Source: Anolis carolinensis
Taxonomy: Eukaryota
Direction of reading: 5' to 3'
Assembly: GCF_035594765.1 (NCBI RefSeq)
Contig: NC_085843.1
Location: 116,909,971 to 116,973,970 of the forward strand
DNA length: 64,000 nt
The translations under genes and the position numbers were made by a program. Below are positions 7,201-46,310 of the stretch, in pieces (position 1 is the first letter of the stretch; every line of letters starts with the position of its first letter). The notes beneath the pieces were generated by a model that was not told the origin of the DNA, did not search any database, and saw only the letters and a list, made by a program, of their open reading frames with translations.

Positions 7201-7923
7201 TGTCACACCTCAGGTTAGCTTCACCTTGCTAAAGACACCAGGCTGCACACAGAACGTAGTCTTTTGTAGTTTATTAGGAAATAGGGAAAAGATAGTTCAT
7301 AAAAGGTAAACTTTCGGTTCCAAAAGATAGTTACAAAAACAAGGCTGTAAGAAACAAATCCATAGAAACATTAGACATGAAACAAGGTCCTTTCAAAAGA
7401 AGCCAAAGTCCCAGAAACGAGAATACATCCAGGCTACAAGATAATACAGGAGAGCAGACTTGGTTCTTGATTCAAGCGAGGAAATTGCTTTGATGAAGAT
7501 TTCCCTCTCAGCAGGCTGTTTTAATAGCATAACATGAAGGCATTTCTTTGCCCTTTGAACTCCCTCTTACTTGCTATTCTGAGACTTCTGCGCAACCCCC
7601 AAAATTCCAAATGACTAACCCGATTTAGAGAAGCAGCCTCATCGCTTTCAAGGCCACAGGGCTCATTAGTGTTATCAGGCTGAGGCTGGGAGCTGCTCTC
7701 CCTTTCTGCTTCTTGCACCTGAAAACCATTATCAGTAACAACATCATTTCTTCCTGTGGGAAAGCCTCCCTGCTCCTCATCTCCCACAGCAGGAACACTC
7801 TGCACCTGAATCCCATAATTCCCATCAGAGTCATCTGGAAACTCATCCTGAACCTGAATCCCATCATCTTGAAACTGCATCCCAGAATCCTCATCAGAGT
7901 CACACAAAGGCTGAGTCACAACA
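7201..7923 (-). mobile_element. Solo LTR (723 bp), probably Ty3/Gypsy
   Basis: 5-bp TSD CTTCT at 7196-7200 and 7924-7928; minus strand reads TGTTGTG...GTGACA; TATTAAAA near 7526-7519; AATAAA at 7275-7270. Confidence 0.85.
7521..7922 (-). CDS. U3-spanning open frame (133 aa, acidic, C-terminal RRSLRIASK); putative read-through tail of a retroelement ORF
   Basis: Open from LTR base 2 (T|GTT GTG ACT CAG CCT) to a stop inside the TATA-like box; same frame as in the other two LTRs. Confidence 0.45.
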   Translation of the reverse strand, partial: VVTQPLCDSDEDSGMQFQDDGIQVQDEFPDDSDGNYGIQVQSVPAVGDEEQGGFPTGRNDVVTDNGFQVQEAERESSSQPQPDNTNEPCGLESDEAASLNRVSHLEFWGLRRSLRIASKREFKGQRNAFMLCY

Positions 7924-10232: not shown

Positions 10233-10253
10233 CTATACAGTGAGAGACTATGT

Positions 10254-10841
10254 GTTGTAGTTGTGCCAAGGGGCAGTTCTGGCACTACTGGTAAAATTGC
10301 TAGTAGGAGGAAAAGGGATAATGTTGAGCAGGTGTTTGATGAGGAACAGCAAGTAAAACGGGTTCGGGAAATACTTATGGCTCCTACTGAGGATGAAACG
10401 TTTGAAGGCTTCTCTAGTGAAGAGGACTCAATGCTGGAAGATGATGGGTTAACAGAAAGTAGAGGTCAACTCAGGAGCAAGAGTCAGATGAGGAAAGGGA
10501 AAGAAAGAAGGGAAAGAAAGGGAAAAAAGATTCCGGATATAATTACTGCTCCCATGGAAGATGAAACATTTGAGGGTTTTTCTGGGGATGATGGGTCTGA
10601 GAGTGGGATGGAAGAGGCTGCAGCTTGGACTCAAGTAAATGTGTGTGCAGCACCAGTTTCTGAGGGTGCATCAGAAGACTGGCATACTACTGGTACACCA
10701 GGGGCATGGGGAGATCTAAGTCTTGAACAAAGATGGAGTGATTGGAGGGCTGGTAGGCGAGGTTCACATATGAGATTGAGATCAGCTGTGGATAATGATG
10801 ACAGGGCGGAGGCCTCATCATCATCGGACTCCGAAGTGTAA
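10254..10841 (+). CDS. U3-encoded acidic polypeptide (195 aa) with two EDETFEGF motifs and MRLRSA
   Basis: Open from LTR base 2; homologous to the U3 frame at 42978-43394; the duplicated motif differs only at silent sites. Confidence 0.6.
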   Translation, partial: VVVVPRGSSGTTGKIASRRKRDNVEQVFDEEQQVKRVREILMAPTEDETFEGFSSEEDSMLEDDGLTESRGQLRSKSQMRKGKERRERKGKKIPDIITAPMEDETFEGFSGDDGSESGMEEAAAWTQVNVCAAPVSEGASEDWHTTGTPGAWGDLSLEQRWSDWRAGRRGSHMRLRSAVDNDDRAEASSSSDSEV

Positions 10842-10954
10842 GTTAAAAGTGGAGTTGAAAGTGAAGGTCCCTTGCAGAAGGCAAGGTGTCGTTTTTGGGA
10901 CATTGCTTTGTCGCTGCCTGTTCTCCTTGGGTCCTGGCTGTACAGCTTTGTTTT

Positions 10955-11390
10955 CCTGAATCCGGATTGACTCCTGATGACAGCATTCGTTTCTGCTTTG
11001 GCGTTCCTGACTTGGCATTTCTGGCTTGGCATTCCTGGCTTCCTCTGGCTCCTGGATCCAGTTTGACTCCTGATGGCAGCGTTCATTTCTGCTCTGACGT
11101 TCCTGACTTGGCGTTTCTGGCTTGGCGTTCCTGGCTTCATCTGGCTCCTGAATCCAGTTTGGCTCTTGATGGCAGCATTTGCTCCTGGCTTGGCAATTCC
11201 GACTTGGCATTTTTGGTTTGGCGTTTCTGGCTTCCACTGGCTACTGAATCCGGTCTGCTTCCTGACGACGGCAGCGTTTGCTTCTGACTTGGCGTTTCTG
11301 GCTCCTCTTTGGCTTCTGAATCTGGTCTGCTTCCTCATGACGACATTGCTTGCTCCTGGCTTGGCGATTTTGGGTCCCCTTTTGGCTTTT
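10955..11390 (+). repeat. 96-bp tandem repeat (about 4.5 copies) inside the LTR, downstream of the TATA box
   Basis: Unit starts (C)CTGAATCC recur at 10955, 11051, 11147 and 11243, then at 11315 after a 72-bp unit. Confidence 0.85.
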
Positions 11391-12402
11391 GACAACAGTA
11401 TCGTTTGCACTCATTATTTGAGAGCGTTTGGCTCTTCCCTGACTCTCTGCGCTACAGCATAGCATGGCGCTTGTTCCAGTGAACGTTTTGGTTGCATTTG
11501 AACCGGATTATCAAGCTAGATAATCCAGGTTATTTTTTTGTTCTTGCTTGGTGCCTTTTCTTGAAGCAAAGACGTTTACTTTTGGTTGAAACACTGAAGT
11601 TAAGTGTTTCTGAGTTCAAAATATCATTTAATAAACATTTGTTAACTTTACTTATTGTGTGTGGCTCTTTAAGAGGGGTCTGTATCATGACACTATGTTT
11701 GAGCATAACAATGGGAAGCATCTACTAAAAATGTGTAGGATTGCCTGGTCCCATTTGGTAGTGACATATTCATTGATCATACCATCCAGGGTACCTGTTT
11801 TTTTCTGATGGCCTTCACATCCATGGACAGGAACTAGTCTCCCTCCACCTTAGAGCAGTACCTATATATACCCATAAAACCTCCTTCAGATTGATATAAT
11901 GTGTATGTATATTGATACTAATATATGTATAACTTGAGCAGGTGTGGCTGGCATGCACACTGTCATTTTAGAGATTGAGCCATTATGTACTTTATTGTAT
12001 TTGTATTCAATAGAAGAATAAGGCTTGAGAAATAATTTGATCCTATTCATCAGTAGGAGCATAGTGTCAAGACTGAAGGAAGTCATAGTCTCACTCTATT
12101 CTGCTTTGGTCAGATCTCACCTGGAATACTGTGTCAAATCCTGGGCACCAGAATTCAAGGAGGATATTCACAAGCTGGAAAGTGTCCAGAGATGGATGAT
12201 CAAAATGATCAAAGGTCTGGAAGCCAAGCCCTGTGAGGAATGGCTTAGGGAACTGAGTATGTTTAGCTTGAAGAGGAGAAGGCTGAGAGGGGACATGATA
12301 GCCATGTTAAAATATTTGAAAGGATGCAGGGCCGGTCCAACAATGGAGGCCGTTTAAGCGGCCGCTTCGGGCGCACGTCAAGGGGGGCGCTGTTGAGGCT
12401 CC

Positions 12403-13570
12403 CTCTCGCACTCCTCGGCCCACTCGCACATCTCTCGCACTCGGCCCACTCGCGGCCCTCTCGCACTCGGCTCAATCGCGCCCCTCTCGCACTCGGCCCA
12501 CTCACGCCTCTCTCACACTCGGCCCACTCACGCATCTCTCTCACTCGGCCCACTCGCGCCCCTCTCGCACTCGGCCCACTCACGCATCTCTCTCACTCGG
12601 CCCACTCACGCCCCTCTCGCACTCGGCCCACTCACGCATCTCTCTCACTCGGCCCACTCATGCATCTCTCTCACTCGGCCCACTCACGCCCCTCTCGCAC
12701 TCGGCCCACTCGCACCTCTCTCTCACTCGGCCCACTCGCGCCTCTCTCTCACTCGGCCCACTCACACCCCTCTCGCACTCGGCCCACTCACGCCTCTCTC
12801 TCACTCGTCCCACTCACGCCCCTCTCGCACTCAGCCCACTCACGCCTCTCTCGCACTCGGCCCACTCGCGCCTCTCTCTCACTCGGCCTACTCGCGCCTC
12901 TCTCTCACTCAGCCCACTCACTCCCCTCTCGCACTCGGCCCACTCACGCATCTCTCTCACTCGGCCCACTCATGCCCCTCTCGCACTCGGCCCACTCACG
13001 CCTCTCTCGCACTCGGCCCACTCACGCCCCTCTCGCACTCGGCCCACTCACGCATCTCTCTCACTCGGCCCACTCACGCCCCTCTCGCACTCGGCCCACT
13101 TGCGCCTCTCTCTCACTCGTCCCACTCATGCCCCTCTCGCACTCGGCCCACTCACGCCTCTCTCGCACTCGGCCAACTCGCGCCTCTCTCTCACTCGGCC
13201 TACTCGCGCCTCTCTCTCACTCGGCCCACTCACTCCCCTCTCGCACTCGTCCCACTTGCGCCTCTCTCTCACTCGTCCCACTCACGCCCCTCTTGCACTC
13301 GGCCCACTCACACCTCTCTCGCACTCGGCCCACTCACGCCCCTCTCGCACTCGGCCCACTCACGCCTCTCTCTCACTCGGCCTACTCGCGCCTCTCTCTC
13401 ACTCGGCCCACTCACTCCCCTCTCGCACTCGGCCCACTCACGCATCTCTCTCACTCGGCCCACTCACGCCCCTCTCGCACTCGGCCCACTCACGCCTCTC
13501 TCGCACTCGGCCCACTCACGCCCCTCTCGCATTCGGCCCACTCACGCATCTCTCTCACTCGGCCCTCTCG
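12403..13570. repeat. 26-bp C-rich minisatellite, about 44 copies
   Basis: Unit approximately ACTCGGCCCACTC(A/G)CGC(C/A)(C/T)CTCTC(G/T)C. Confidence 0.95.
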
Positions 13571-13950
13571 CCCTTGCAGCCCTCTTGCCCCTGAACAAGA
13601 CCTGAGGCCAGGCCTCTGGGCCTGCTGCTCCACCTGCACCCTTCCTGGATTCCTCCCGCAATGCCCGGCAGCCCTCCGTGGCTGGAAGGAGCTCTGGCAG
13701 GTCGAGCAGGCCTGTGCCCCTGCCATGCACCTCCTTGGGGACCCTCTCAGCCATGAAGACGGGGCAGGTAGGAACCCGTCCCTGTTCCCAGCATTTCGCC
13801 AGGCATGTCTCCAGGGCAGGCCTGGGCCAACTTGGCAACTGAGGGGGGAAAAGGGGCCTGAGGCTGGGTTGCTGCAGGTTTTTCAGCTGCCTGGCCATGT
13901 TCCAGATGCTGGAACATGTGGGCCTACTCCTAGGATTTATAGTTTCCTAA

Positions 13951-18948: not shown

Positions 18949-20510
18949 AACCACAGTATCCATTCAAGTTCATGTAGCGTAGTATGGACTGGAGACCTGT
19001 ATTGGGGGGAGGGAGGGTGCGAATCTGGGCCCCTGGGAGCAGCCGAGGACGGGCCTGGCCCACACCCCCTCGCATCCCGGGCCTCTTCCTTCCTCTTCCT
19101 TTTGTTATTTAAACTATATATTGTGAAATTATGGTGTGTTTTTTTTCATGCGTGTTCTGTGTTCAAGATAGGGAGACCAAAGAGGAAAAGCAAGGGAGGG
19201 ACGGAGGCCCCAACACTTCCGGCTCCCATGCGAACTCCCCCTTGTGTGCCTTGGAGGGTGGAGCATGCGCACTGGCTCTCCCTTTCTCTATGGCTCTTTT
19301 CAGGTCGCTTGGGAACCCGAAGTGCCTCCTCCCTTTGCCTTTGTGTCCAAGAAGGAGAGAAGGACGTTGCAAGGTTTGCATTGAGGGTGTTTCTCTGGTG
19401 GGTTTGGCTTGGAAGGGGGCTCATTAAGGCCCAATTAATTAATGCACTGAGCTGAGGCGAGGCGGCGGCGGCGGCCATTTCCCCCCTCCGTCTTCCTCCT
19501 CCTCCTCGGCCTCCTTCCCCCTCGCCCCCTCCCATTGGCTGAGCCTCCCATTGGCTGAGGGGCAAAAGGAAAGGAGTTTGGGTGATTTGCAAAAGCTTTT
19601 TTTTCTTTTCGAAAAAAACGAAGAAATAAGAAAAAACGGCCTCTCGCGATTCGAAACTGCGATATCCAGACGTGTGGACAACCAAGGTTCGATATTGCTT
19701 CAAAACAATCGAAAAAAACGAATCAATAACGGTAAACGGGGAAAACGAATTATTTGAGCAAGCCTACTCTTTACTGTCTGCTCATGGTGAACAAATCGAA
19801 GTATGGTGACCTTGTTACCTTATTGATCCATGTGATGCAGAAGGCCAAAACAAGTTTAAGAGGTTTAATGTGCTCAGAATAACATTTACTCAGCTGCCTA
19901 ACGAATCAATGGGAATGAGCCAATTCTCACCCAATTTAATTCTGAAAGGTAGTGGGGGGAATCATATACTTGCATTTAGCTAGTTTTGGTATAGCTGACA
20001 TAGCAGTTTTTCAAGTTGTATTTTTTTCTTTAAAACTTACCACTTTTCTAAAGCCTTCCACCTAACCATAACCCCAGGGTCCTCACATTCAGCCAAAGTA
20101 AAAACCTTTAAGTAAATGTTAAGTCCTATACAGTGAAGATTGGCTCAAGATTAAATTGCACAAGAGTAAGAGAGTTAATGGAGAAACAGTTTATCTGATT
20201 TTGTTAGTGTTACTCATGCTGTATCTTAAAAATTGATAGATTAAATGAATCAATCAACATCCCCACAAACTTTCTAGTTTCCCTTCCTTCCCATGTTACT
20301 CTCCTCTTCATATTGTTTTGTTTTCTTATCTCTCCCCTTACTGCAAAAGCAACCAAGCAACATGTATTTATTGAATTTATACCCTGTCTCTATCTGAAAG
20401 AAATGAACTGAAGCCCTGGGACTCAGTATGCATGTGAAAGGTGAGAGTGCAGTTATAATTTAGTACATTAAAAATTTAAAAAGAAGACCAGAGAATGCAG
20501 TTTCAGCATT

Positions 20511-29207: not shown

Positions 29208-29603
29208 GTTTATAGACGTAATGTTCATAACACTTCATGGTTTCAGTCTCAAAGACAACCCCTGAAATTATTCATCCACTTTGGAATCCTTTGTCTTTTG
29301 CATTCTGCAGCTGCCATATTGGATATAGTTTACTTTCATTCAGAGCAGATGAGAAAGGTGGAAACTGAAATATTTTCTGTTTTTTAGACATTCTGATATA
29401 TATTATAAGTAACTAATTGTCATGACTTATGATCAATCCACTCTCTGTGTGCAGTGTTGCCATGTTTTCAAAACAGCAATAAGAGTTGGGAAATTCATGA
29501 CAAGCAGGTTTAACAATCAGGAAATAGCAAAAGAAAGAGTATGTCCACCCAAATACCAATTGAAAATATTGAGCTGCTTACAGGGAGTGGTCAACCCCCC
29601 TGT

Positions 29604-30270
29604 TCAAGCAGCTCCACTGGCTGCCAATAACTTTCTGGGCCCAAGTCAAGGTGCAGGTTATTACCTATAAAGCTCTAAACGGTTCGGTACCTGCCTATCT
29701 TCAGTCTTCGAGGAGGGTCTTTTCGTGTCCCCCGTCATCCCCTATGAACCCACTTGGGGGGGGGTCATCCCCTATGAACACACGTCTGAAATCTTCCGGG
29801 GAGGCCCTCCTCTCGCTTCCATCTTCCTCACAACTGCATTTGCTGGGGACGAGAGAGAGGGCCTTCTCGGCCGTGGCCCCGCGACTCTGGAACTCCCTCC
29901 CCAGAGAGATTAGGTTAGCTCCCTCTCTATCCTCCTTCAGGAAACAACTGAAGACTTGGATGTTTCGGCAGGCCTTCGGCGAGACAGTCATTAGCTAATC
30001 AGCCCCAGATGGTTTTAATAATCTATCCTGTATTTATTGTGTCCTTACCATTTATATGTTTTAAATGCAACTTTACCCTTGTATTGCTGTTTCAGTTGAC
30101 TGGTTTTTAACTGTTATAATATTCTTGCTTCATATTGTATTACTGTTTTTATCTTTTATATTGTGATTCGTATTATGTTGTTGTTTATTTTGTCCTTATG
30201 TTGTTTGGGCCTCTGCCCCATGTAAGCCACCCCAAGTCCCCGCGGGGAGATAGTGGCGGGGTATAAATAG

Positions 30271-35517: not shown

Positions 35518-38500
35518 TTACATATCATCTGTCCAAAACCTCATTTCCTCTTGTGACGGTAACTTTCCTTCCTTGTTTTTTAAACCTTTTACAACAAATT
35601 TTCCCCACACAGCATCATAATCGCTTTGTTTCCATATACCTTTTTTAACCTTTAATATACATGTTAGTTTATCATTTATTGCTAATTTCCATGCTTCTTT
35701 ATACCACTCCTCTATTTGTATGTTCATTTCTTTTTTCCAATTCCTTGCTATAAGTAATCTTGCTATTGTTACTAGATTTGTTATCGCATCTTTCTCCTCC
35801 TTTTTCCATTGTTTATTATTATATAATGATAATAATGCTATGCTAGGACTTTTATCAATTTTCATATTCATTATATCTTCTATTTCTCTAAAAACTTTCC
35901 CCCAAAATTTGTTTACATATTTGCATTGCCACCACATGTGTATATAAGTTCCTGGTTCTTGGCACCCTCTCCAGCAATTTTTTGAATTATTTTTATTCAT
36001 ATATGCTATTCTTACTGGTGTCAGATACCACTTCCATATTAACTTGTAGTAATTTTCTTTAACCCGTATTGATAAATTTTTTAAGTGTCTTTGTCCCCAT
36101 AACTGTTGCCATTCTATTTCGCTTATTTTTATCCCTAAGTCTTCTTCCCAAGACTCCTTAAGGGTATTCTTATTTATTTTCCCCTCCTTCGTTTCGATTA
36201 ATATCTTATAAATTCTACTAATTATACCTCTCAAGTTTTCCTGTTCCTCTACAGCCCTTCCCTTCTGTATTGTTAGCTCAAATTGACTAAGTTGGCTTCC
36301 ATTTCTATTGTTTTTTTCCCAATTTTTAAACCATTGTTCTAATTGTATACAGTGGAACCATGTCAATTTTATTTCTTTAAACTCTTCCAACATCATTTCC
36401 TTCTTCATTCTCACCTTCAGCCAATCCTCTATCCTATCTAATTTATTCTCCCTTAATTTTTTATCCATTACTTTTTTTAAATTTTTAGGGAATTTTTTTT
36501 CCATCACTATTGGGGTTATGATTGACCCCTCCCCTATTAACTTCCTCCTATATTTATTCCACACTTCTAATATATTGCTCAACATTGGGTTTCTAATTTC
36601 CCTCATTTCTTTTTTAGTAAACTGTTTAAAAAATATATTCCAAATTTCATCCTCCACTTTTCCTGAATCATTACTAAGCCAATCTATTCCCTCTCTTTTA
36701 ACCATTCCTTCTATCACCCAGCTTAATCTGCTTGCTTCATAATATTTTTTAATATTAGGTAGTGCTAGTCCTCCCTCTTTTTGCGATCTATACCATAACT
36801 GTTTAGTTAATCTATTTCTTTTACTTCCATTACAATACTTGTTAATCATTTGTTGCCATCTGTTTAGTTCTTCTTCTGTGATTTGAAGTGGTAGCATTCT
36901 AAATATAAAATTTATCTTTGGAAGTATTTTCATTTTTACTAATGCTATTCTTCCAAACCAGGATAGGCGTATGTCTTCATATTCTATTAATTTTTTCTGA
37001 ACCTCTTTCCTTAATGTTACTACATTTAGTTCTTCCATTTTTTTTAAATCCTTTGTTATTAATATTCCTAAGTATTTTAATTCATTCTTAATTCTTATTC
37101 CCATTTTACTCTGCTCTATAAAATCTTTCTCTTCTTCCTTTGTATAATTTATTAACATCATTTCTGACTTATTCCAATTAACTTGTAATCCTGTCGTTTT
37201 CCCAAATATCTCCAAATGTTCTTTTATTTTGTCCATTTTCTCTATTATATTTTCTATAAATAGCAATGTATCGTCAGCAAATAAGCTCACCTTATGTTTC
37301 TCCTCTTTTCCTAGCCCCTCTAGATTCTTATCATTCCTTATACCGTTTGCAAACATTTCTATCACCATAGCAAATAATATCGGCGACAAAGGGCACCCTT
37401 GCCTCGTTCCTCTGGACACTTTTATTTCCTTAGTCACTCCATCATTTATAGTTATCTCTGCTGAATTCCTTGAATAAAATTGTTCTAAGATTCCTTTTAT
37501 TCTATTTCCCATTCCGAATTTATTCAGGATTTCCCTTAATGCCTCCCATTCCACACAATCAAACGCTTTAAAAATATCTAGTGATAATATCCCTGCTTTT
37601 TCCTTCCCCTCTTTAGCCAAATAAATTTTTTTTAGTACTCTCCCTATCAAATTTGACATTAGTCTTCCCTTCACAAACCCACACTGATCTTTTTTTATAT
37701 ACTTATACATGCATTTATTCATTCTATTAGCTATTATCGCAGACAGAATTTTTGCGTCCTGATTAACTAACGATATGGGCCTATATGACCCCGGGTCTGT
37801 TAAATCTTTATCAGGTTTGGGTATTAATATTATTAGTGATTTCCTCCATGATTCTGGTATTTTATCTCCCTCCATTATCCCATTATACATTTTTAATAAT
37901 TTTGGAGTTAAAACTTCTCTGAAGCTTTTATAATATTCTGTCCCTAGACCATCCAGGCCTGGAGCTTTCCCCACTTTTAATTTCTTAATAACTTCCTCTA
38001 TTTCTATCCTCTTAATGGGTTGTTCCAATAGCTCTTTATCCCTCTCCTCCAGCTTGCACTCCCAATTTTCCTCCACATATTTCCTAATTACTTCTATAGA
38101 GCTAGCTTTAGTTTGATATAATTCTTTATAAAATTCTTCAAATACCTTCAGTTTTTCTTTCATAGTTCTACATAATTTACCTGTTTTATCTTTTATCATA
38201 TTTATCATTCCTTCCATTTTCTTTTTTTGTGTTGATTTGGCTAGCATCTTGGAATTCCTATCACTAAACTCAAAGTATTCCCTCCTTAAATAAATTAAAT
38301 TCTCTTGTACTTCATCTATTTCCATTTTATCCAGTTCCTCTTTTTTTGCTCTCAGCCTTGCATAAGTTCGTATATCTCTCTTTATTACATATGTTTTTTC
38401 GATCTCTTCTATTTCTCTTTCTAAATTCCTTTTCCTTTCTTCTTGCCTTTTTTTTAGATTAATTGTCTCTTTTATGCATAACCCTCTAGTCACTGCTTTC

Positions 38501-39375
38501 ATGGTGTCCCATAGAACTCCTTTTGTCACCCCCTTTTCATTAAAGCCCCATATTTCTTGCCATTCTACTTGCATTCTGTCTACTATCTCTTTATAATTCA
38601 ATATTTTCGTATTTAACCTCCACCTCTTCATTTTGTCATAATCACATTTCAGCACCAACTCAATCGATACCAGAGCATGATCCGAAATCTTAATTATCCC
38701 AATATCAGCATTTAACACTTTACTTAACATATTTTTGGAGACAAAAATATAATCTATTCTTGTATACACCTTATGCACCGATGAATAATATGTATATCTG
38801 CTTTCATTCCCTTTTACCAATCTCCACACATCCTTCAGTTGCCATTTATTCATTACTCTACTTAAGTCCGTTATTTCGATATTTCTTGTTTTTGATGTTA
38901 ACATTGTTTTATCCTTCTTTGGGTCCATATAACAATTACAATCTCCTCCAAATATTACATTTTGTTGGTGATAATTCTCTATTTGCTCTAATACTTTTTC
39001 GTAAAATTCTTGCTGTTTAACATTTGGTGCATATACATTTACTAATACATATTTTTCTTCCCCTATTTCACCATATATTATTATGTATCTTCCCTCTTCA
39101 TCTTTCAATACCTTATTTATACCCAAATTGCATTTCTTTGCTATTATTATAGCTACACCTCTTGACTTTGATGACCCAAAAGATTTCTCATAATTCCTTA
39201 TCCAGCTCGACTTTAGTTCATTTGAGCCCAGTTTATTCTGATGCGTTTCCTGTAGGAAGATGACATCCGCCGCGTCCTTCTTCAGTAGGGCTTCAATCCG
39301 CCTTCTCTTAATTACCGTCCCCAACCCTCTCACATTAAGTGTTGAAATTCTTAATTTATGAGACATCATTTCCAT
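35518..39375 (-). CDS. L1 ORF2p (APE endonuclease, reverse transcriptase, CCHC motif), 1285 aa
   Basis: LNVRGL, LQETH, GGDCN, RIDY, SDH; KAPGLDG, YRPISL, KAFD, QGCPLSP, FADD; CWRGC...HMWWQC. Confidence 0.97.
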   Translation of the reverse strand: MEMMSHKLRISTLNVRGLGTVIKRRRIEALLKKDAADVIFLQETHQNKLGSNELKSSWIRNYEKSFGSSKSRGVAIIIAKKCNLGINKVLKDEEGRYIIIYGEIGEEKYVLVNVYAPNVKQQEFYEKVLEQIENYHQQNVIFGGDCNCYMDPKKDKTMLTSKTRNIEITDLSRVMNKWQLKDVWRLVKGNESRYTYYSSVHKVYTRIDYIFVSKNMLSKVLNADIGIIKISDHALVSIELVLKCDYDKMKRWRLNTKILNYKEIVDRMQVEWQEIWGFNEKGVTKGVLWDTMKAVTRGLCIKETINLKKRQEERKRNLEREIEEIEKTYVIKRDIRTYARLRAKKEELDKMEIDEVQENLIYLRREYFEFSDRNSKMLAKSTQKKKMEGMINMIKDKTGKLCRTMKEKLKVFEEFYKELYQTKASSIEVIRKYVEENWECKLEERDKELLEQPIKRIEIEEVIKKLKVGKAPGLDGLGTEYYKSFREVLTPKLLKMYNGIMEGDKIPESWRKSLIILIPKPDKDLTDPGSYRPISLVNQDAKILSAIIANRMNKCMYKYIKKDQCGFVKGRLMSNLIGRVLKKIYLAKEGKEKAGILSLDIFKAFDCVEWEALREILNKFGMGNRIKGILEQFYSRNSAEITINDGVTKEIKVSRGTRQGCPLSPILFAMVIEMFANGIRNDKNLEGLGKEEKHKVSLFADDTLLFIENIIEKMDKIKEHLEIFGKTTGLQVNWNKSEMMLINYTKEEEKDFIEQSKMGIRIKNELKYLGILITKDLKKMEELNVVTLRKEVQKKLIEYEDIRLSWFGRIALVKMKILPKINFIFRMLPLQITEEELNRWQQMINKYCNGSKRNRLTKQLWYRSQKEGGLALPNIKKYYEASRLSWVIEGMVKREGIDWLSNDSGKVEDEIWNIFFKQFTKKEMREIRNPMLSNILEVWNKYRRKLIGEGSIITPIVMEKKFPKNLKKVMDKKLRENKLDRIEDWLKVRMKKEMMLEEFKEIKLTWFHCIQLEQWFKNWEKNNRNGSQLSQFELTIQKGRAVEEQENLRGIISRIYKILIETKEGKINKNTLKESWEEDLGIKISEIEWQQLWGQRHLKNLSIRVKENYYKLIWKWYLTPVRIAYMNKNNSKNCWRGCQEPGTYIHMWWQCKYVNKFWGKVFREIEDIMNMKIDKSPSIALLSLYNNKQWKKEEKDAITNLVTIARLLIARNWKKEMNIQIEEWYKEAWKLAINDKLTCILKVKKGIWKQSDYDAVWGKFVVKGLKNKEGKLPSQEEMRFWTDDM

Positions 39376-39661
39376 TTCCCTTTAAAAGCTTTTTTGTGGC
39401 TTGAACCAATGTGAACCCTTGACCCTTACCCTCCCCTACCCTTGCCCACCCTTCCCCCCTCCTCCCCCTTGATCCCCCCCTTCCCTCATTCCCCCCTTCC
39501 TCCCCTTCCATTCTTCGGGACTCCTCGTCCCAATCATGGCCCCCGGCCTTCCCAATTGGGGAGGGGGAAGGCGAAGTCATCCCATGGCCCAGAGTCTCCC
39601 TCCCCCCGAGTGCTCATTTTAAATTCAATAATAAATTTAATTGCAGTGTTACGCTTTCTTC

Positions 39662-40909
39662 TTACATCCCGATTCCTCCAGTGGCGCCAAATAATTCCTC
39701 CGTTACTCCTGCTTCCGAACCCTTCTCCTCCTCCTCCTTTCGATCTCTCTCTTGTTTTCTTATTATACCGAGCTCCTCCAATAGTTGATGTCCTTGCTCC
39801 AATGAGTCTATTCTATATCTCTTGCCTTTCCATTGGAATTTGAGAAAGATAGGATATCCCCAAGTGTACAAAATTCCGGCCTTCATTAATTGGATCGTAA
39901 TAGGCTTCATTGAATATCTCCAATTCTTAGTTTCAGTACAATAGTCATTGAATATCTCCAATTTTGAGTCGCCCATCTTTAAATATTCTGGGTTCTTCTT
40001 TAATATTTTCATCAAATTTTCTTTCTTTACGAAGTTTTGAAATCGGATTATTATATTCCTAGGAATTATTTTATTTCTTCCACTCGGAAGGCGATGAACT
40101 CTCTCGATATCTAATTCTGACCAGTTTAATATCGGCGTGATCTTTTGCAACCACTTCAAAATCTCGGTTTTCAGATCTTCTTTCTTATTCCCTTCTGGGT
40201 AGTTTCTAATTATTGCGTTGTTTCTTCTTTGATTATCTTGCATATACACGAACTTTCTTTCCACATCTGAAAGCCTATTTTCATTTTTTTGCGTTTGTTG
40301 TTTGAGTACAAGTTGTTCCTGTTTATTTTTCCCGATTTCAGATTTATTTGTTTGTATCTCTCCATGTGCTGTTTTCAAACTTTCTCTTATTGTCTGAAAT
40401 TTTTCATCTGAGCTTTTCCTTTCTGCCTCCAATTGTGCTTTTATTTCTTTGTTGCTGGTCAGAATTTCTTGCTTCAAAACCTGGATCTCGCTCTTCCTCA
40501 TTTCTCTTTCTTTATCAAACATCAAATTCAAATTCAAATTCATTTCCTTTGTTTGTCTTTCACTCTCCTCTTTGATCAATTCCGCTATTTTATTTAACAA
40601 TTGGCCACTGCCCATTTCATTCCCCATTTCTTTCCTCTCTCTGCTCTCACTGCTTCCTTTTAGTTCTGCTGATAAACATGGCAGAGAGGTAGAAATGCCT
40701 CCTCCTCCTATTGCCCCCTCCGCTTGAGGGGGGGTCCGTTTTAATTGTTTCCCCTCCTTAATTGAGGTGGGGGGACTTCTTTTAACAATGCTCATTTCCT
40801 TGGGGATCTGAGAAACCCTTTCCAATCTAGAAAAAGATCTGTCCGAAGGCCTTGTGCGTGACCAAAGAGGATTTTTTGGGATATCCTGACTTTGTTTATT
40901 CCTTCTCAT
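39662..40909 (-). CDS. L1 ORF1p (coiled coil, RRM, CTD), up to 415 aa
   Basis: Coiled coil followed by RRNNAIIRNYPE, IERVHR, PRNIIIRF, IFNDY, WGYP. Confidence 0.93.
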   Translation of the reverse strand: MRRNKQSQDIPKNPLWSRTRPSDRSFSRLERVSQIPKEMSIVKRSPPTSIKEGKQLKRTPPQAEGAIGGGGISTSLPCLSAELKGSSESRERKEMGNEMGSGQLLNKIAELIKEESERQTKEMNLNLNLMFDKEREMRKSEIQVLKQEILTSNKEIKAQLEAERKSSDEKFQTIRESLKTAHGEIQTNKSEIGKNKQEQLVLKQQTQKNENRLSDVERKFVYMQDNQRRNNAIIRNYPEGNKKEDLKTEILKWLQKITPILNWSELDIERVHRLPSGRNKIIPRNIIIRFQNFVKKENLMKILKKNPEYLKMGDSKLEIFNDYCTETKNWRYSMKPITIQLMKAGILYTWGYPIFLKFQWKGKRYRIDSLEQGHQLLEELGIIRKQERDRKEEEEKGSEAGVTEELFGATGGIGM

Positions 40910-42976
40910 TCACCTCCCTTCAGTTGCTCCTTCCGTATTTATCAATTTTTTTTTTTTATAAGTACTTAGTTCCCCCTTTCGACGCAGTCCAAAAAAAAAA
41001 CAACCCTAGTACGCCTTGCAAGGCCTTGCAACATTATTGTAACATTATTTCCTTTGGAGCCTTTGGAACCAGGGGATTCGCTTTTAATCTGATGAGGAAA
41101 GCTCACTCCTTCCTCAAAGGAGGCTTCCAGATGATTATATTCAATCTTGCTAATTATTTTAATGCTTATTTGAGCTACAGACTATTTTTCTTCTCCGGCT
41201 TCGCACGCGTTCGCACTCATCATGTTACTTTCGCTTTTGCTTTCAGCCTGCTTTCAGCCTGCTTCGGCCAGCTTCCCCTCACTTCTGCCAAAGCTCATAA
41301 ATCAAAGCAATTAAGTGGTAATAGATTACCTTTTCAGGTTTCTTGTATGCTCAACACTCTCATCTCCCTTTTAATCCATAAAGATCCTTCCTCGATCCCT
41401 TTTTCACTGCTTTTCGCTTTGTTTTCTCAAGAGCTGAAAGGAAAGACGTCTTTACCCGGCCATAGCTGACTCCGCCTCCCCCTTCTTCTTAAATTTTTCA
41501 ACAATTTGTTGATAAGAAAACCACTGAAAGTTATGGCCTCCTTCAAATTAATTTTATACTTCTTTTGATCCTACTTCAAAAGATCTTGATAAGTTATCCA
41601 TCTTTCTGTACAGGTCATTCCCTGTCTATAACAAGCTTCTTGTGATGTAGTGCAAAGGCCCTGTTCTCCCATCCTATATAGTGAAGAGAAAGAGAAATGT
41701 CACTTGTTTAAAACTAGGTTTTTGTCCAAAAATATTTTTTGTTTGTTTTTGTGTTTTTGCTATGATGTATGCGCTAATAAAAAAAGAACCCAGCATCTAG
41801 ATAAAATGTTTATGCTTGTGCAATGAATTGTGTTTAAATAGACAATGTTGTTGGTGCAACCAACAGGAACATTTTCTCTGTTTCTCTCCTGAAGTTATAA
41901 ATTAATATTAATGTTATTTAAATAAACATCAGTTATTGAGAAAACTGAATTAATTTCAAATTCCTAGCTAGTACTTTAAGCTGAGTATAGGTCCTCATGC
42001 CTGATCTATATGAAAAAGCAGTAGCTTAGGGACAGAAGTTGCAATATGCATGGAAAAATGTATCAGTTTTACCTGCCAGCATCTGCAGGAAATCCTGGAA
42101 ATTGCTACTATTAAGTGTAGACAAAAGTGAGCTAGATGGACCAACAATTTGAGTAAATAGTAGCTCCCCTTTGACAGTATACAATAAATACTGTCACGAA
42201 AATGATACTTCATGCTTTTTTGGTTGTTTTTCTCTAAGAACAATCTGTTTTGATACTTGCAGAGTAGGATGAGACTGATATTAAGTCCACTTTCTTTCAG
42301 GAAAGAAAAAGCTCACTTCGAAACACAGAGAGTGATGAGAAGAAAAGTTGAACTATAATTTGCAATGCAATAAAGTCAGATGCAGAAAATTGGATGACTC
42401 ATCATTAAGAAAACCTGCCTATCCCACTTCAGGAGGCTGATATAGGAAGGAAATGTATGCATATTAAAAACCTGTATCATTGAGGTATGTTGATTGCCAC
42501 GTGACTTTCATGTGTGAATGTGCCCTCTCAGAACAAACTCCAATGCAACTCACAGATATGGCCTTTACAACCCTTTAATGAGTGGTTGTTAGTAGAGTTG
42601 CTTTGTTCACATAGCTAGGAACCAGCAAATGACAATTGGTTTAGTGGTGAAAAATCAAAATATGTAAATGTACATGATCCTGTTTATATAGCACAAGAGA
42701 ACATGACAAATTTCACATGCTTGTTCTTATTTACCTTTCTTCAAAGTTTATCTATGTGAGAATATCCATGGTATCTCTCACCTATGTGTGTATTGGCTTT
42801 GGAACGGTAGTTTTAGAAGATCTTTAGCCTTCTCTGTGAAAGAGTGATGGTACATCACCAAACTACACTCCCATGTAGACCTGATAAGATGTGTGCAGAT
42901 ATCGCCAAAGGGGAAGGCAGTCCATGCTGCTGCCAATCTTGTCGCAGGGTGACCAAGACATAACCCTTATCATTTT

Positions 42977-44148
42977 TGTTTTGGTTGAGCCTTCTGGCTC
43001 CGGTACTAGGAGACGTGGTCGTAAGACTCCTCGAGAGTCAGACTCTTTTGAGGAGCGTGAAAGGAAACGGCTCCGGGACTTATTTGCAGAACCAACAGAT
43101 GAAGACTCATTTGAGGGTTTTACCGAGGGAATGGAGGAAGAGATGGTTAGCTCAGAGGAGGATGACATGGAGTGGACTCGTGTGAGGGAGGATTTGGGTG
43201 TCACCGGCAATGATAGCATGGGAGACAATTGGCGGGTTGCAGGATCAGACCCATGGATGGGCTGGAGGGATGGAGCGGGATCCACAGCTGGGGATGCTGT
43301 GGGGCGTAGTCAAAGGTGTTTTAGCTCTGATGAGGATGATGATGATGAGGCACCTGGAATTAGGATAGCAGCTGATAGCGATGAGGAGTTATGAACTGGG
43401 ATAAAATGGGGTTTAGGATCAATGGCTAATTGCGTTGGGCAAGGTAATCTGGACGAACGCTTGGGCTCTTGTTGGGGAACTTCCGAAGACGGGTGTGATT
43501 CGTTGCTGGATACGTAAGTTACCAAGGACACTGGGCATAGACGGCGGGAGGAACTGTGTGGGGTTTTTCTGTACAACTTGTGTTTAATCTTGATAGTTTG
43601 GACCTCCGTCGTCTTTTTGACAGACATTAATTACCTACTCTGGATTGACGCTGGACTGACTGACTGACTACGACCCTGGACTATCCCTTCTGTGGCTATC
43701 GGTGGAACCTGTGGACGTCTGCACTTGGCTTTCGACCTTGGACCGGATTGGGACCCATGCTGACCGTCGTTACCCTGATTGATGTGCCTGGACCCGGATT
43801 TCGCTCGTTGCACGGAGGAGTAAACAGCCTGAGTTACTCATCTGTAGCTTTTGAGTAGCAGAGAGGAATCTGCTGCCAGTTTTTGTGTTCATTTTGACCT
43901 CTGTTTTCCAACTTTTGTTTGTTTAAATTGTCAGGCTGAAGTAAGCACTTTTGCTTTAACCCGGATTAAATTCCTGTTTAATCCGGTTGATCCTTTGGAA
44001 CCGTTTTAATTCAAACGGAGCTGTTTCTGTTACTTTTCACACTAAAGACAAGTGTTTGCTTAGTCCTTTGCTTCCTACGGGCATTTCTCAGTTCTGTAAC
44101 TTTAATAAACTGTGTTGTACTCTATTGGGTGGCGTTCTGTCTATGACA
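42977..44148 (+). mobile_element. Solo LTR (1172 bp), probably Ty3/Gypsy
   Basis: 5-bp TSD ATTTT at 42972-42976 and 44149-44153; TGTTTTG...ATGACA; GATAAAA at 43400; AATAAA at 44104-44109. Confidence 0.85.
42978..43394 (+). CDS. U3-encoded acidic polypeptide (138 aa) with DLFAEPTDEDSFEGF motif
   Basis: Open from LTR base 2 to just before the TATA-like box; aligns with the 10254-10841 peptide. Confidence 0.58.
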   Translation, partial: VLVEPSGSGTRRRGRKTPRESDSFEERERKRLRDLFAEPTDEDSFEGFTEGMEEEMVSSEEDDMEWTRVREDLGVTGNDSMGDNWRVAGSDPWMGWRDGAGSTAGDAVGRSQRCFSSDEDDDDEAPGIRIAADSDEEL

Positions 44149-46310
44149 ATTTTAGCCTGATGTCCTTAGGAAACTGTAGATCCCCAAACTATACATTCTT
44201 TTTATTGGCGGGGGGGGGGGGGGGAGGTAGTGGTGTTTGATAACTTTTGTGCTGCTGACAAACCCAAAGCCCTTTATACACATAGTCTGAAGGTAATTTT
44301 ATGAGTAATATTTTTTACTACACCATGCTGGCTGTCACGGCTACATAAATATAACATGCAATATTATGTGGAACACCCTACACCCATTTAATGCAGGTGT
44401 AACTCAAAATATATTTCTGGAAAGACAGTAGCAGATTTTAAAATATATATCAGATATGACAGGTTTAATCTCGACTTCTAAAACACAATTGGGTTGAAGT
44501 GGAAGCCTTTCTCTAAACTTCTGAAAGGTAGTAAATACTTTTTTTCCTCTGTCTCTTCTTCACTGTCTATCAAAGTCTTCAGAGGAAGGAAACAGAAAGT
44601 AATCTTATCAGATCTCAGAGATGAAAAATCTTTGACATTTCCTTCATTTGGCTTTTGGCAAGGGCAGGAAGAAGTGAAAAGAATAGCAACAATTCTGTGC
44701 ACACACCTGTATTTTACAAAAAGAGAGGAAAGAAGGACAGAAGGACATATTTTAGTACTGCAAAAAACTTTTATTTTTCTAGCATCTATATACCATATAT
44801 TAACCTTATATTTTCTGATAAAATTGGAATATTGCAACAGTGGAAATCTATTTTACAGAGCAAGCACAGAACAATTGAATCAGTTGTTATTATTATATTA
44901 CCAAGATTACTAGGAACTTTGGGATGATATATTATTTTAGAAACTCATCTAAACTTCGGTTCTCCTTAATGTTGTATCCTGGCCGCATTATTGCTTGTGT
45001 GCTCCTTTGTGTTCCTTCATTTTATATTTTAATCATATTTTATTGTGCATTACTCCAAGCACCTGGTGGCAGAGGGTGTGATTTATAAAATAAAAAATTT
45101 AATGAAATATGTGGTGTCTGTACGGCTCCCTCAATAGATCAATAATAAAATAAAGAATGATGACTGTCAAGACTAGTATATTGACAAAACCAACAAGGGA
45201 TGAAAAATGTGCTGTTATATGTGACATATAGCATCATAAATAATTATTATTAGTTACTGGTTTTCTTTATTATTATTTTTTTGCAGGTGATAATGTCCTT
45301 CCAAAAAGAATATGTTTAAAGATCCCTTGCTCATAAGGGGGGAAAAAGGAAGCCAAGGCTAAATCTATAGATCACACTGTAACTCTTCTATTTCATGTAT
45401 TTTGATGGCCAAGGGTCTTTCACACTACACAATTGTGGCAATGTGATCCACTTTGATGGCCATATATGCACCCTAAGAAATCTTAAGATTTGTGGTGTGA
45501 CAAGAATTCCAAGTTTCCTATTTAAACTGGATTCCATGGGATGTTCAAATGGCACTGAAGTGGCATCATGGCATTGTAATTGTATGGTGTAAAAGGTTCA
45601 CTCTCTCTTTGGCAGTGCTGTATTCCATACTCAAAAATCATATTTCTGTGATACATATTTTCCAGAGTCTGGCAACATCTTATCTAGATGCTACTAATGA
45701 AAACTGTGTAAGATTCTTATTAAGATGATGGTATATGATTTTCACCAAAAATAGACAGAAGTGCTATTGAAAGCACTTTAATTATAAAGTGTATTAATTT
45801 TATCTCAGAGAGAGTTTTAAATACAGCCTTCCAATAACGTGCGGCATGTGAGCAATTTTATTACACATGGCATTTTGTAGAATGTAATAGTGCAGTACTT
45901 ATCTAATTGGTTGGAGGCCAAGAATGTCCTTAAGTAAGACTCCCTTTCCAATGCCTGATGTATGTTACAAATAGAAATAAAAAATGAAATACTAGTGCAT
46001 TCTAAAATAATTCATCACTTCCTCATTCTCTTTGTTTTGATTCACAGGATTAGAGGTAGTCTAGCCAGCACTTCGGTTTACTGTGCAACTCATAAAAGTG
46101 CATCTCCACATCAAAGGCTTTTTGCACATTCTAGTATATAGGAGCATGCTTCTATCACTTCATGTTCTCAGAAGGACTGTGATCTGAGAGCTCTTTCCTT
46201 AGAGTAATGTGCACGGGTATGGTAGCATAGAATGTTCTGGAATTGACTCCTAGAAAAAAAATGATAGTGGGTTCAAAGTACACCAGCCTTTTAAAACCAT
46301 TCATGTAAGA

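Follow-up and report, generated by a model that had tools for sequence, protein, structure and literature searches.

What a long terminal repeat (LTR) might encode is the question raised by a 64,000-nucleotide stretch of the Anolis carolinensis genome (NC_085843.1, positions 116,909,971 to 116,973,970; hereafter the window). Two solo LTRs in this window, the 10253 element (LTR A, family A) and the 43050 element (LTR B, family B, Ty3/Gypsy), share a short acidic peptide motif ending in FxGF (Table 1). The initial annotation of the window had recorded the sharing. It had missed two features that we describe here: the LTR B frame appears to be the end of a Pol/integrase protein, and its motif matches, by sequence, the class that binds LEDGF and HRP2, the TND-interacting or IBD-binding motifs (TIM/IBM).

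A peptide motif shared by two divergent LTRs

The LTR B motif, KRLRDLFAEPTDEDSFEGF, is coded at 43065-43121 on the + strand. A six-frame scan of the window found 26 FxGF words, three of them behind an acidic run, one in LTR B and two in LTR A (F of FEGF at 10401 and 10569), and thereby confirmed the spacing that had been claimed for the two LTRs. The claim that the peptide is shared although the DNA has diverged also held, as blastn between LTR A and LTR B returned chance words only (best 14 nt, E 0.018), whereas the frame peptides aligned at E 4e-7. Because the observed peptide score was matched by none of 5000 full shuffles and by 17 of 5000 local 10-residue shuffles, the likeness exceeds shared acidic composition. 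In the 19 codons of the motif, identity at codon positions 1, 2 and 3 was 14, 17 and 6 between the first LTR A copy and LTR B, and 13, 15 and 10 between the second copy and LTR B, a pattern that indicates protein-level constraint. In both LTRs the frame opens at base 2, directly behind the terminal TG, and the phase is the same. Given this common phase and a peptide alignment that extends from the LTR terminus, the two LTRs are related in origin, and the earlier description of LTR B as an independent family is not upheld.

The basic cluster RRRGRK was found ahead of the motif, as annotated. This position is mostly GRRGRK in relatives, and (R/H)K and a neighbouring R are kept across the family tails. 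Similarly placed tryptophans had been reported downstream, and the WTxV and WxxWR residues do occur in both LTRs, but the W-rich segments that hold them aligned no better than shuffles (1080 of 5000, and 367-390 of 3000 in a second test). The pattern WTxV...WxxWR, which was fitted post hoc, arose in 1 of 200,000 shuffles, and the segment had no relative in the PDB. It may be a second motif, with LIR-type and TFIIH p62-binding W-x-x-V sequences as look-alikes. The proposed number of one or two motif copies per tail describes family B (one) and LTR A (two), but not P0010/P0011, which have two to three.

Across 25 distinct family B tails, the helix anchors and the D, E, S and G columns were nearly invariant, with the FxGF columns fixed by construction because the tails were picked for having that motif; much of the flanking tail was equally invariant. 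The anchors L-x-x-(I/L)-F were present in all 25, as was S or T at the S/T-x-x-D/E site of the acidic linker, which we take to be a CK2 pattern. A hidden Markov model (HMM) search of 1.84 billion representatives gave six matches, of which four were real, comprising Anolis records and one Logan open reading frame (ORF); P0012 and P0013 were rejected as low-complexity matches. The suggestion that the motif is an old clade feature therefore stands in part: it is conserved between divergent LTR families, but the HMM relatives extend no further than these records, and the similar tails of Podarcis lie elsewhere in the squamate tree.

The LTR B frame in Gypsy integrase models

A search for longer proteins with the LTR B frame returned six matches, all Anolis carolinensis records. 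Three were models of Gypsy Pol/integrase that contain rve, H2C2 and SH3 domains and end in the LTR B peptide, and the other three were chimeric models with pieces of long interspersed nuclear elements (LINEs). The Pfam sets and sequences of P0006 and P0007 gave the pol order reverse transcriptase (RT)-RNase H-integrase with an SH3/GPY-F module. Among 34 members listed from three Pol clusters (cluster sizes 46, 75 and 4), 29 reached the LTR junction and 27 carried the motif; in the two junction-reaching models that lacked it, the frame was shifted or cut ahead of the motif. Of 28 models scored for the distance between HPVFH and the junction, 27 had 41 residues, and the tail was exactly 138 residues long in 21 of the 34 members. 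The window frame shared 130 of its 138 residues with the C-terminal end of Pol model P0021 (1129 aa) and 127 of 138 with that of P0019. The sequence EEAFVRGDS, which directly precedes the LTR-coded part, would fit a purine-rich tract. Because Pol models run into it at a constant in-frame junction, the LTR B frame is, in these database gene models, almost certainly the end of an integrase that continues into the 3´ LTR. Read-through into the LTR in this phase is likewise seen in further squamate Gypsy models and in the third LTR of the window.

The AATAAA near its 3´ end places LTR B in + orientation. Its start was set at 42977 because no other start yields exact ATTTT at both ends (42972-42976 and 44149-44153); a start near 42940 was rejected, the duplication being imperfect there. 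Neither a second copy of LTR B nor an internal region was found within the window. Since the frame ends ahead of a TATA-like word, U3 would contain it and the inferred promoter would lie downstream of it; its expression from the solo LTR is therefore unlikely. The window copy has no ATG ahead of the motif.

Counted by eye, the chromodomain (Chromo, PF00385) was present in 102 of the best 120 of 1182 integrase-region relatives. Family B had no PF00385 match and no chromodomain-like residues past the SH3 end. In a 32-row RT-RNase H-integrase tree, family B fell within a starred squamate clade (100/99) among chromodomain families; a 123-row integrase FastTree agreed on the clade and not on its inner order. 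Because the C-terminal chromodomain is absent despite this placement among chromodomain-bearing elements, we filed family B as chromovirus-derived and not as a chromovirus proper. Two vertebrate chromoviruses of the same clade, Anolis P0052 and Podarcis P0048, share the read-through into the LTR in one phase and, unlike family B, keep the chromodomain, end in basic RRSAR-type motifs and lack FxGF. In one Anolis Gypsy family (P0133, P0144, P0147 and P0158), every Pol model ends 10 residues past the end of SH3 and has no chromodomain or tail; the LTR of this family could be LTR A.

Tails of at least 120 residues were found in 27 of the 120 relatives, and FxGF within the first 150 tail residues in nine, two from family B and seven from Podarcis muralis. 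In the Podarcis muralis clusters P0057 and P0063, a Pfam-scored chromodomain is followed by two helix-acidic-(F/L/M)xGF motifs, an arrangement seen in 8 of 13 and 9 of 12 listed members, the remaining ones being cut short or without the anchor used. In five further Podarcis clusters (P0062, P0064, P0069, P0073 and P0078), a chromodomain too degenerate for Pfam is followed by FFDDWLFTPTLSASTFxGF, a single motif that is less acidic and has an S/T-rich linker. The Podarcis motifs appear to be located ahead of the LTR. A single clade of all FxGF-bearing families was modestly rejected in an approximately unbiased (AU) test (p-AU 0.030; 9 rows versus 23, LG+G4, with the group defined after the trees had been seen), and separate gains, swapping of LTR tails or repeated loss are therefore possible.

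Likeness to LEDGF/HRP2-binding motifs and a possible role in targeting

TIMs are defined by a helix, an acidic linker of 8-16 residues that is often CK2-phosphorylated, and an optional FxGF, the last being present in and needed by all known LEDGF/HRP2 partners (PMC9987994). The lizard motif has a predicted helix, an acidic linker and FxGF in the same order, and its linker length (8) is within the definition. When a profile of eight Anolis motif stretches, built without host sequence, was compared with 177,635 PDB sequences, the top match was 6EMO, the LEDGF/p75 IBD-JPO2 M1 structure (E 0.0013), aligned ungapped to KEVADIFNAPSDDEEFVGF; three PDB sequences were returned at E up to 10, the second at E 2.2. 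The natural P0007 stretch alone again placed 6EMO first (E 0.046). Compared by eye with JPO2 motif 1, the P0007 stretch was identical at 12 of 19 positions without gaps and the window copy at 8 of 19. The AlphaFold2 model of the relative P0015 placed its sole tail helix at the site of the motif helix (residues 147-158), weakly (local pLDDT ~55), with pLDDT <50 over residues 159-261 and a shallow alignment of 9 rows. The lizard motif thus closely resembles JPO2 motif 1 and is, by this likeness, a candidate TIM/IBM-class motif.

We propose that LTR B is the solo leftover of a lizard Ty3/Gypsy family whose ancestors would have carried a chromodomain. The pol frame of full-length copies would pass the polypurine tract and run ~138 codons into U3 of the 3´ LTR; the integrase would consequently end in a long, acidic, disordered tail in which no chromodomain remains. 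The predicted helix, acidic linker and FxGF of this tail would bind the TND/IBD of LEDGF and HRP2, and an H3K36me2/3 reader would carry the integration complex into transcribed gene bodies, the tether being a copied host linear motif rather than the folded integrase core. Binding of the tail to a LEDGF/HRP2-type TND is, in our estimate, probable. Its use in insertion targeting is slightly favoured, and we lean toward the joint proposal, binding of the tail to LEDGF/HRP2 together with a bias of insertion in favour of transcribed chromatin. With somewhat more doubt than belief, a broader picture may be drawn, in which squamate Gypsy elements repeatedly swapped or supplemented the chromodomain, a reader of heterochromatin, with a copy or mimic of the LEDGF/HRP2-binding motif (LTR-coded in Anolis). 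LTR-coded tails would then be a swappable targeting cassette, and these elements would be the first retroelements outside lentiviruses with a LEDGF/HRP2 insertion tether and the first mobile elements to gain it through linear-motif mimicry.

Several observations weigh against this proposal. Six PDB searches were run, with motif bounds set with the TIM hypothesis in mind; 6EMO was top in two, second in one and absent in three. The window's own 43-residue peptide, a whole-tail profile of the two window frames and a Podarcis-only profile each retrieved no TIM from the PDB, the addition of Podarcis motifs to the Anolis profile lowered 6EMO to rank 2 (E 1.1), and no solved TIM complex other than 6EMO was matched in any of these searches. 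The P0015 model is poor overall (mean pLDDT 42.6), and the evidence for the Pol fusion comes from automated gene models, not from junction DNA. For LTR A, the search for longer proteins gave no Pol fusion and only P0011, a chimeric model with three motif copies from a third family closer to LTR A. Among variants over the whole LTR A frame, synonymous changes were not significantly in excess (8 of 23 versus 27% expected, p 0.27; 38 variants scored of 141).

Little is known of how vertebrate Ty3/Gypsy elements select their insertion sites; integrases that use LEDGF have been described from lentiviruses. To our knowledge, the BET-binding tail of gammaretroviral integrases is not LTR-coded. As in the lizard proposal, that tail is a flexible C-terminal extension in which a short motif binds a chromatin reader, and it differs in binding the ET domain of BET proteins and targeting enhancers and promoters (PMC8149907). 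LEDGF and HRP2 are H3K36me2/3 readers that act as tethers of lentiviral integration in gene bodies (PMC5053271, PMC8149907, PMC10854676), and both the tether and the outcome, H3K36me3 gene bodies, would be the same for the lizard element. HIV integrase, however, binds LEDGF through its folded catalytic core and N-terminal domain, whereas cell partners use an unstructured motif (PMC5053271, PMC8149907), and the lizard element, as far as the models show, is an env-less Ty3/Gypsy element, unlike lentiviruses. If the motif binds, a lizard retrotransposon would have arrived at the lentiviral host tether by a different route, and its predicted target would have shifted from silent to transcribed chromatin.

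Host TIMs (JPO2/CDCA7L, IWS1 and KMT2A) combine an anchored helix, an acidic S/T linker and FxGF in a disordered setting (PMC9987994, PMC10854676), an arrangement predicted for the lizard motif as well; the lizard motif shares the spacing and 8-residue linker of JPO2 motif 1, and tandem copies occur as in JPO2 and IWS1. Unlike these host motifs, it is LTR-coded, resides on a retrotransposon integrase and is a candidate binder judged from its sequence. A precedent for LTR-coded targeting tails is the plant CRM group A, in which a motif that replaces the chromodomain is coded in the 3´ LTR (PMC3059260). The partner of this CR motif is not identified in that article, whereas the lizard motif has a candidate partner; CRM elements are found in plants and at centromeres, whereas the lizard element belongs to an animal lineage with active chromatin as its predicted target. 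The likeness of family B to CRM group A holds at the level of protein models, and no CRM sequence was identified among the 120 integrase relatives. POGZ uses an FxGF motif for the LEDGF IBD. It is a DDE-family protein linked to that domain (PMC8149907), but the product of a domesticated DNA-transposase gene and not of an active retroelement. The TIM review discusses only lentiviral integrases in its section on viral mimicry and does not contain the word stem 'retrotranspos' (PMC9987994). Within the literature covered, at the level of listings and abstract openings and outside both subscription journals and Repbase/Dfam notes, we found no description of a retrotransposon integrase that has an FxGF/TIM motif or uses LEDGF, and none of these lizard tails. 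If the proposal is correct, thousands of anole solo LTRs carry a ready-made LEDGF-binding peptide that could be spliced into host gene models; P0003, P0005, P0008 and P0011 are chimeric predictions that incorporate the LTR tail.

The alternative that survives best, though unlikely, is that the motif binds a TND for some end other than the choice of insertion site, such as nuclear retention, stability of the complex, or recruitment of or competition for LEDGF, HRP2 or another TND protein in a way that protects transcription of the element. TIMs have many roles in transcription and there is more than one TND, several being known (PMC9987994); LEDGF has a further effect on HIV integrase, the modulation of its multimerisation (PMC5053271); and two Podarcis families retain a Pfam-scored chromodomain beside their two FxGF-like motifs. 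On the other hand, the family B tail occupies the place of a known targeting domain, and in five Podarcis clusters the motif accompanies a degenerate chromodomain, both of which favour targeting. It is more improbable that the frame encodes, instead or in addition, a small accessory protein of its own, translated from an RNA that is spliced or starts in the LTR, perhaps in family A alone. Such a protein would fit the Met at the second LTR codon of family B copies, the 137-residue ORF call P0009 that begins at that Met, the failure to find a Pol fusion for LTR A, and the Anolis Gypsy family in which Pol ends 10 residues past the SH3 end. However, the in-frame junction is constant across 29 models, the TATA-like element past the stop puts the frame upstream of the inferred transcription start, the window copy has TTG and not Met at the second LTR codon, and P0009 is a mechanical gene call.

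Slightly less probable again is a chance likeness to TIMs in a motif that binds some other, non-TND host protein. Short acidic-aromatic motifs often resemble one another by chance, FxGF arises in 0.6-6% of shuffled tails of this kind, and a single TIM entry of the PDB was matched, with an outcome that varied by profile; against this stand the thousand-fold gap in E value between 6EMO and the next match, obtained with a profile that held no host sequence, and the correct order and spacing of all three motif parts. Finally, the specificity of the match to JPO2 motif 1 (identical spacing, 12 of 19 identities) could reflect capture of a piece of a CDCA7L-like host gene as a functionless passenger, but this is very improbable given that third codon positions are near random while positions 1 and 2 are kept, and that the motif is duplicated within tails where a passenger would decay. 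Host-gene capture as the origin of the motif would be compatible with the targeting proposal if the motif stayed functional.

Further features of LTR A and the window

LTR A belongs to a high-copy family, summed contig depth rising ~30- to 45-fold at 10253 in all four runs. In contigs of other LTR A copies, indels relative to the window copy lie near 10450-10465 and 10510-10540, and the basic stretch between the two motifs may therefore fall outside the family's frame. Joints that step back ~146 bases suggest that the motif copy number varies across LTR A copies. Among the 24 of 299 loose ends listed, none upstream of 10253 joined LTR A to pol. A metagenome scan with the LTR A peptide gave two loci, L001 and L002, with equal match statistics; L001 was rejected as a relative, since its match spans 9 residues, is attributable to chance and lies in a frame that contains stops. 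TTAAAA stands directly 3´ of the LTR A stop (10843). Downstream of the frame, a 96-bp unit is repeated ~3-4 times (10954-11392, +), and near the frame end lies RRGSHMRLRS (10758-10790, +), several positions of which differ in most family contigs. We take this peptide to be reminiscent of the arginine anchors through which proteins bind to the acidic patch of nucleosomes.

Table 1. Features of the two motif-bearing LTRs, in window coordinates; NLS, nuclear localisation signal.
Feature	Position	Strand	Remarks
Solo LTR, family B, Ty3/Gypsy, 1172 bp	42977..44148	+	TG...CA ends; exact 5-bp duplication ATTTT
138-codon frame plus stop, probable U3-coded portion of Pol/integrase C-terminal tail	42978..43394	+	
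Basic cluster RRRGRK, putative NLS	43008..43025	+	
Predicted helix, ending in hydrophobic anchors L-x-x-(I/L)-F	43047..43085	+	
8-residue acidic linker AEPTDEDS with S/T-x-x-D/E site	43086..43109	+	
FxGF (FEGF)	43110..43121	+	aligned to JPO2 motif 1 of 6EMO
W-rich segment (WTxV ... WxxWR)	43173..43268	+	seen in three families
TATA-like ATAAAA, inferred promoter element, directly 3´ of stop codon	43401..43406	+	
AATAAA polyadenylation signal near LTR B 3´ end	44104..44109	+	
Solo LTR, family A, 1440 bp, high-copy	10253..11692	+	exact duplication CTATG
195-codon frame of LTR A, two motif copies (10356-10412, 10524-10580)	10254..10841	+	LTR B phase

The stretch was present in 20 of the 24 sequencing runs listed, with no RNA run among them. 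Rfam gave no matches, Pfam matched neither the LTR A and LTR B frames nor P0009 and P0010, and the ESM Atlas held nothing usable for P0009 or for residues 1-155 of P0010. Among 29 window frames scanned, chosen from 983, no host exons adjoining the LTRs were found.

The third solo LTR, of Gypsy type, lies at 7201-7923 (-), with TG...CA ends and an exact AGAAG duplication. From its 5´ end runs an open acidic frame of 133 codons in the phase of LTR A and LTR B, which has no FxGF and ends in RRSLRIASK, like the RRSARIAAK end of Pol P0052; this end may be a basic nucleosome-binding anchor. A full-length L1-type LINE occupies 35518-40909 (-), with an open ORF1 of 415 aa and an ORF2 of 1287 aa (endonuclease, RT). 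At 12310-13700, within a CR1-like fragment, a GC-rich 26-bp tandem array of 43 registered copies lies beside 140-bp units. A GC-rich, promoter-like stretch at 19000-19800 holds a possible first exon on the - strand (MAAAAASPQ...). LINE RT fragments were found at 54545-55567 (-) and 29573-29998 (+), and a similar fragment is fused to the LTR tail in P0003.
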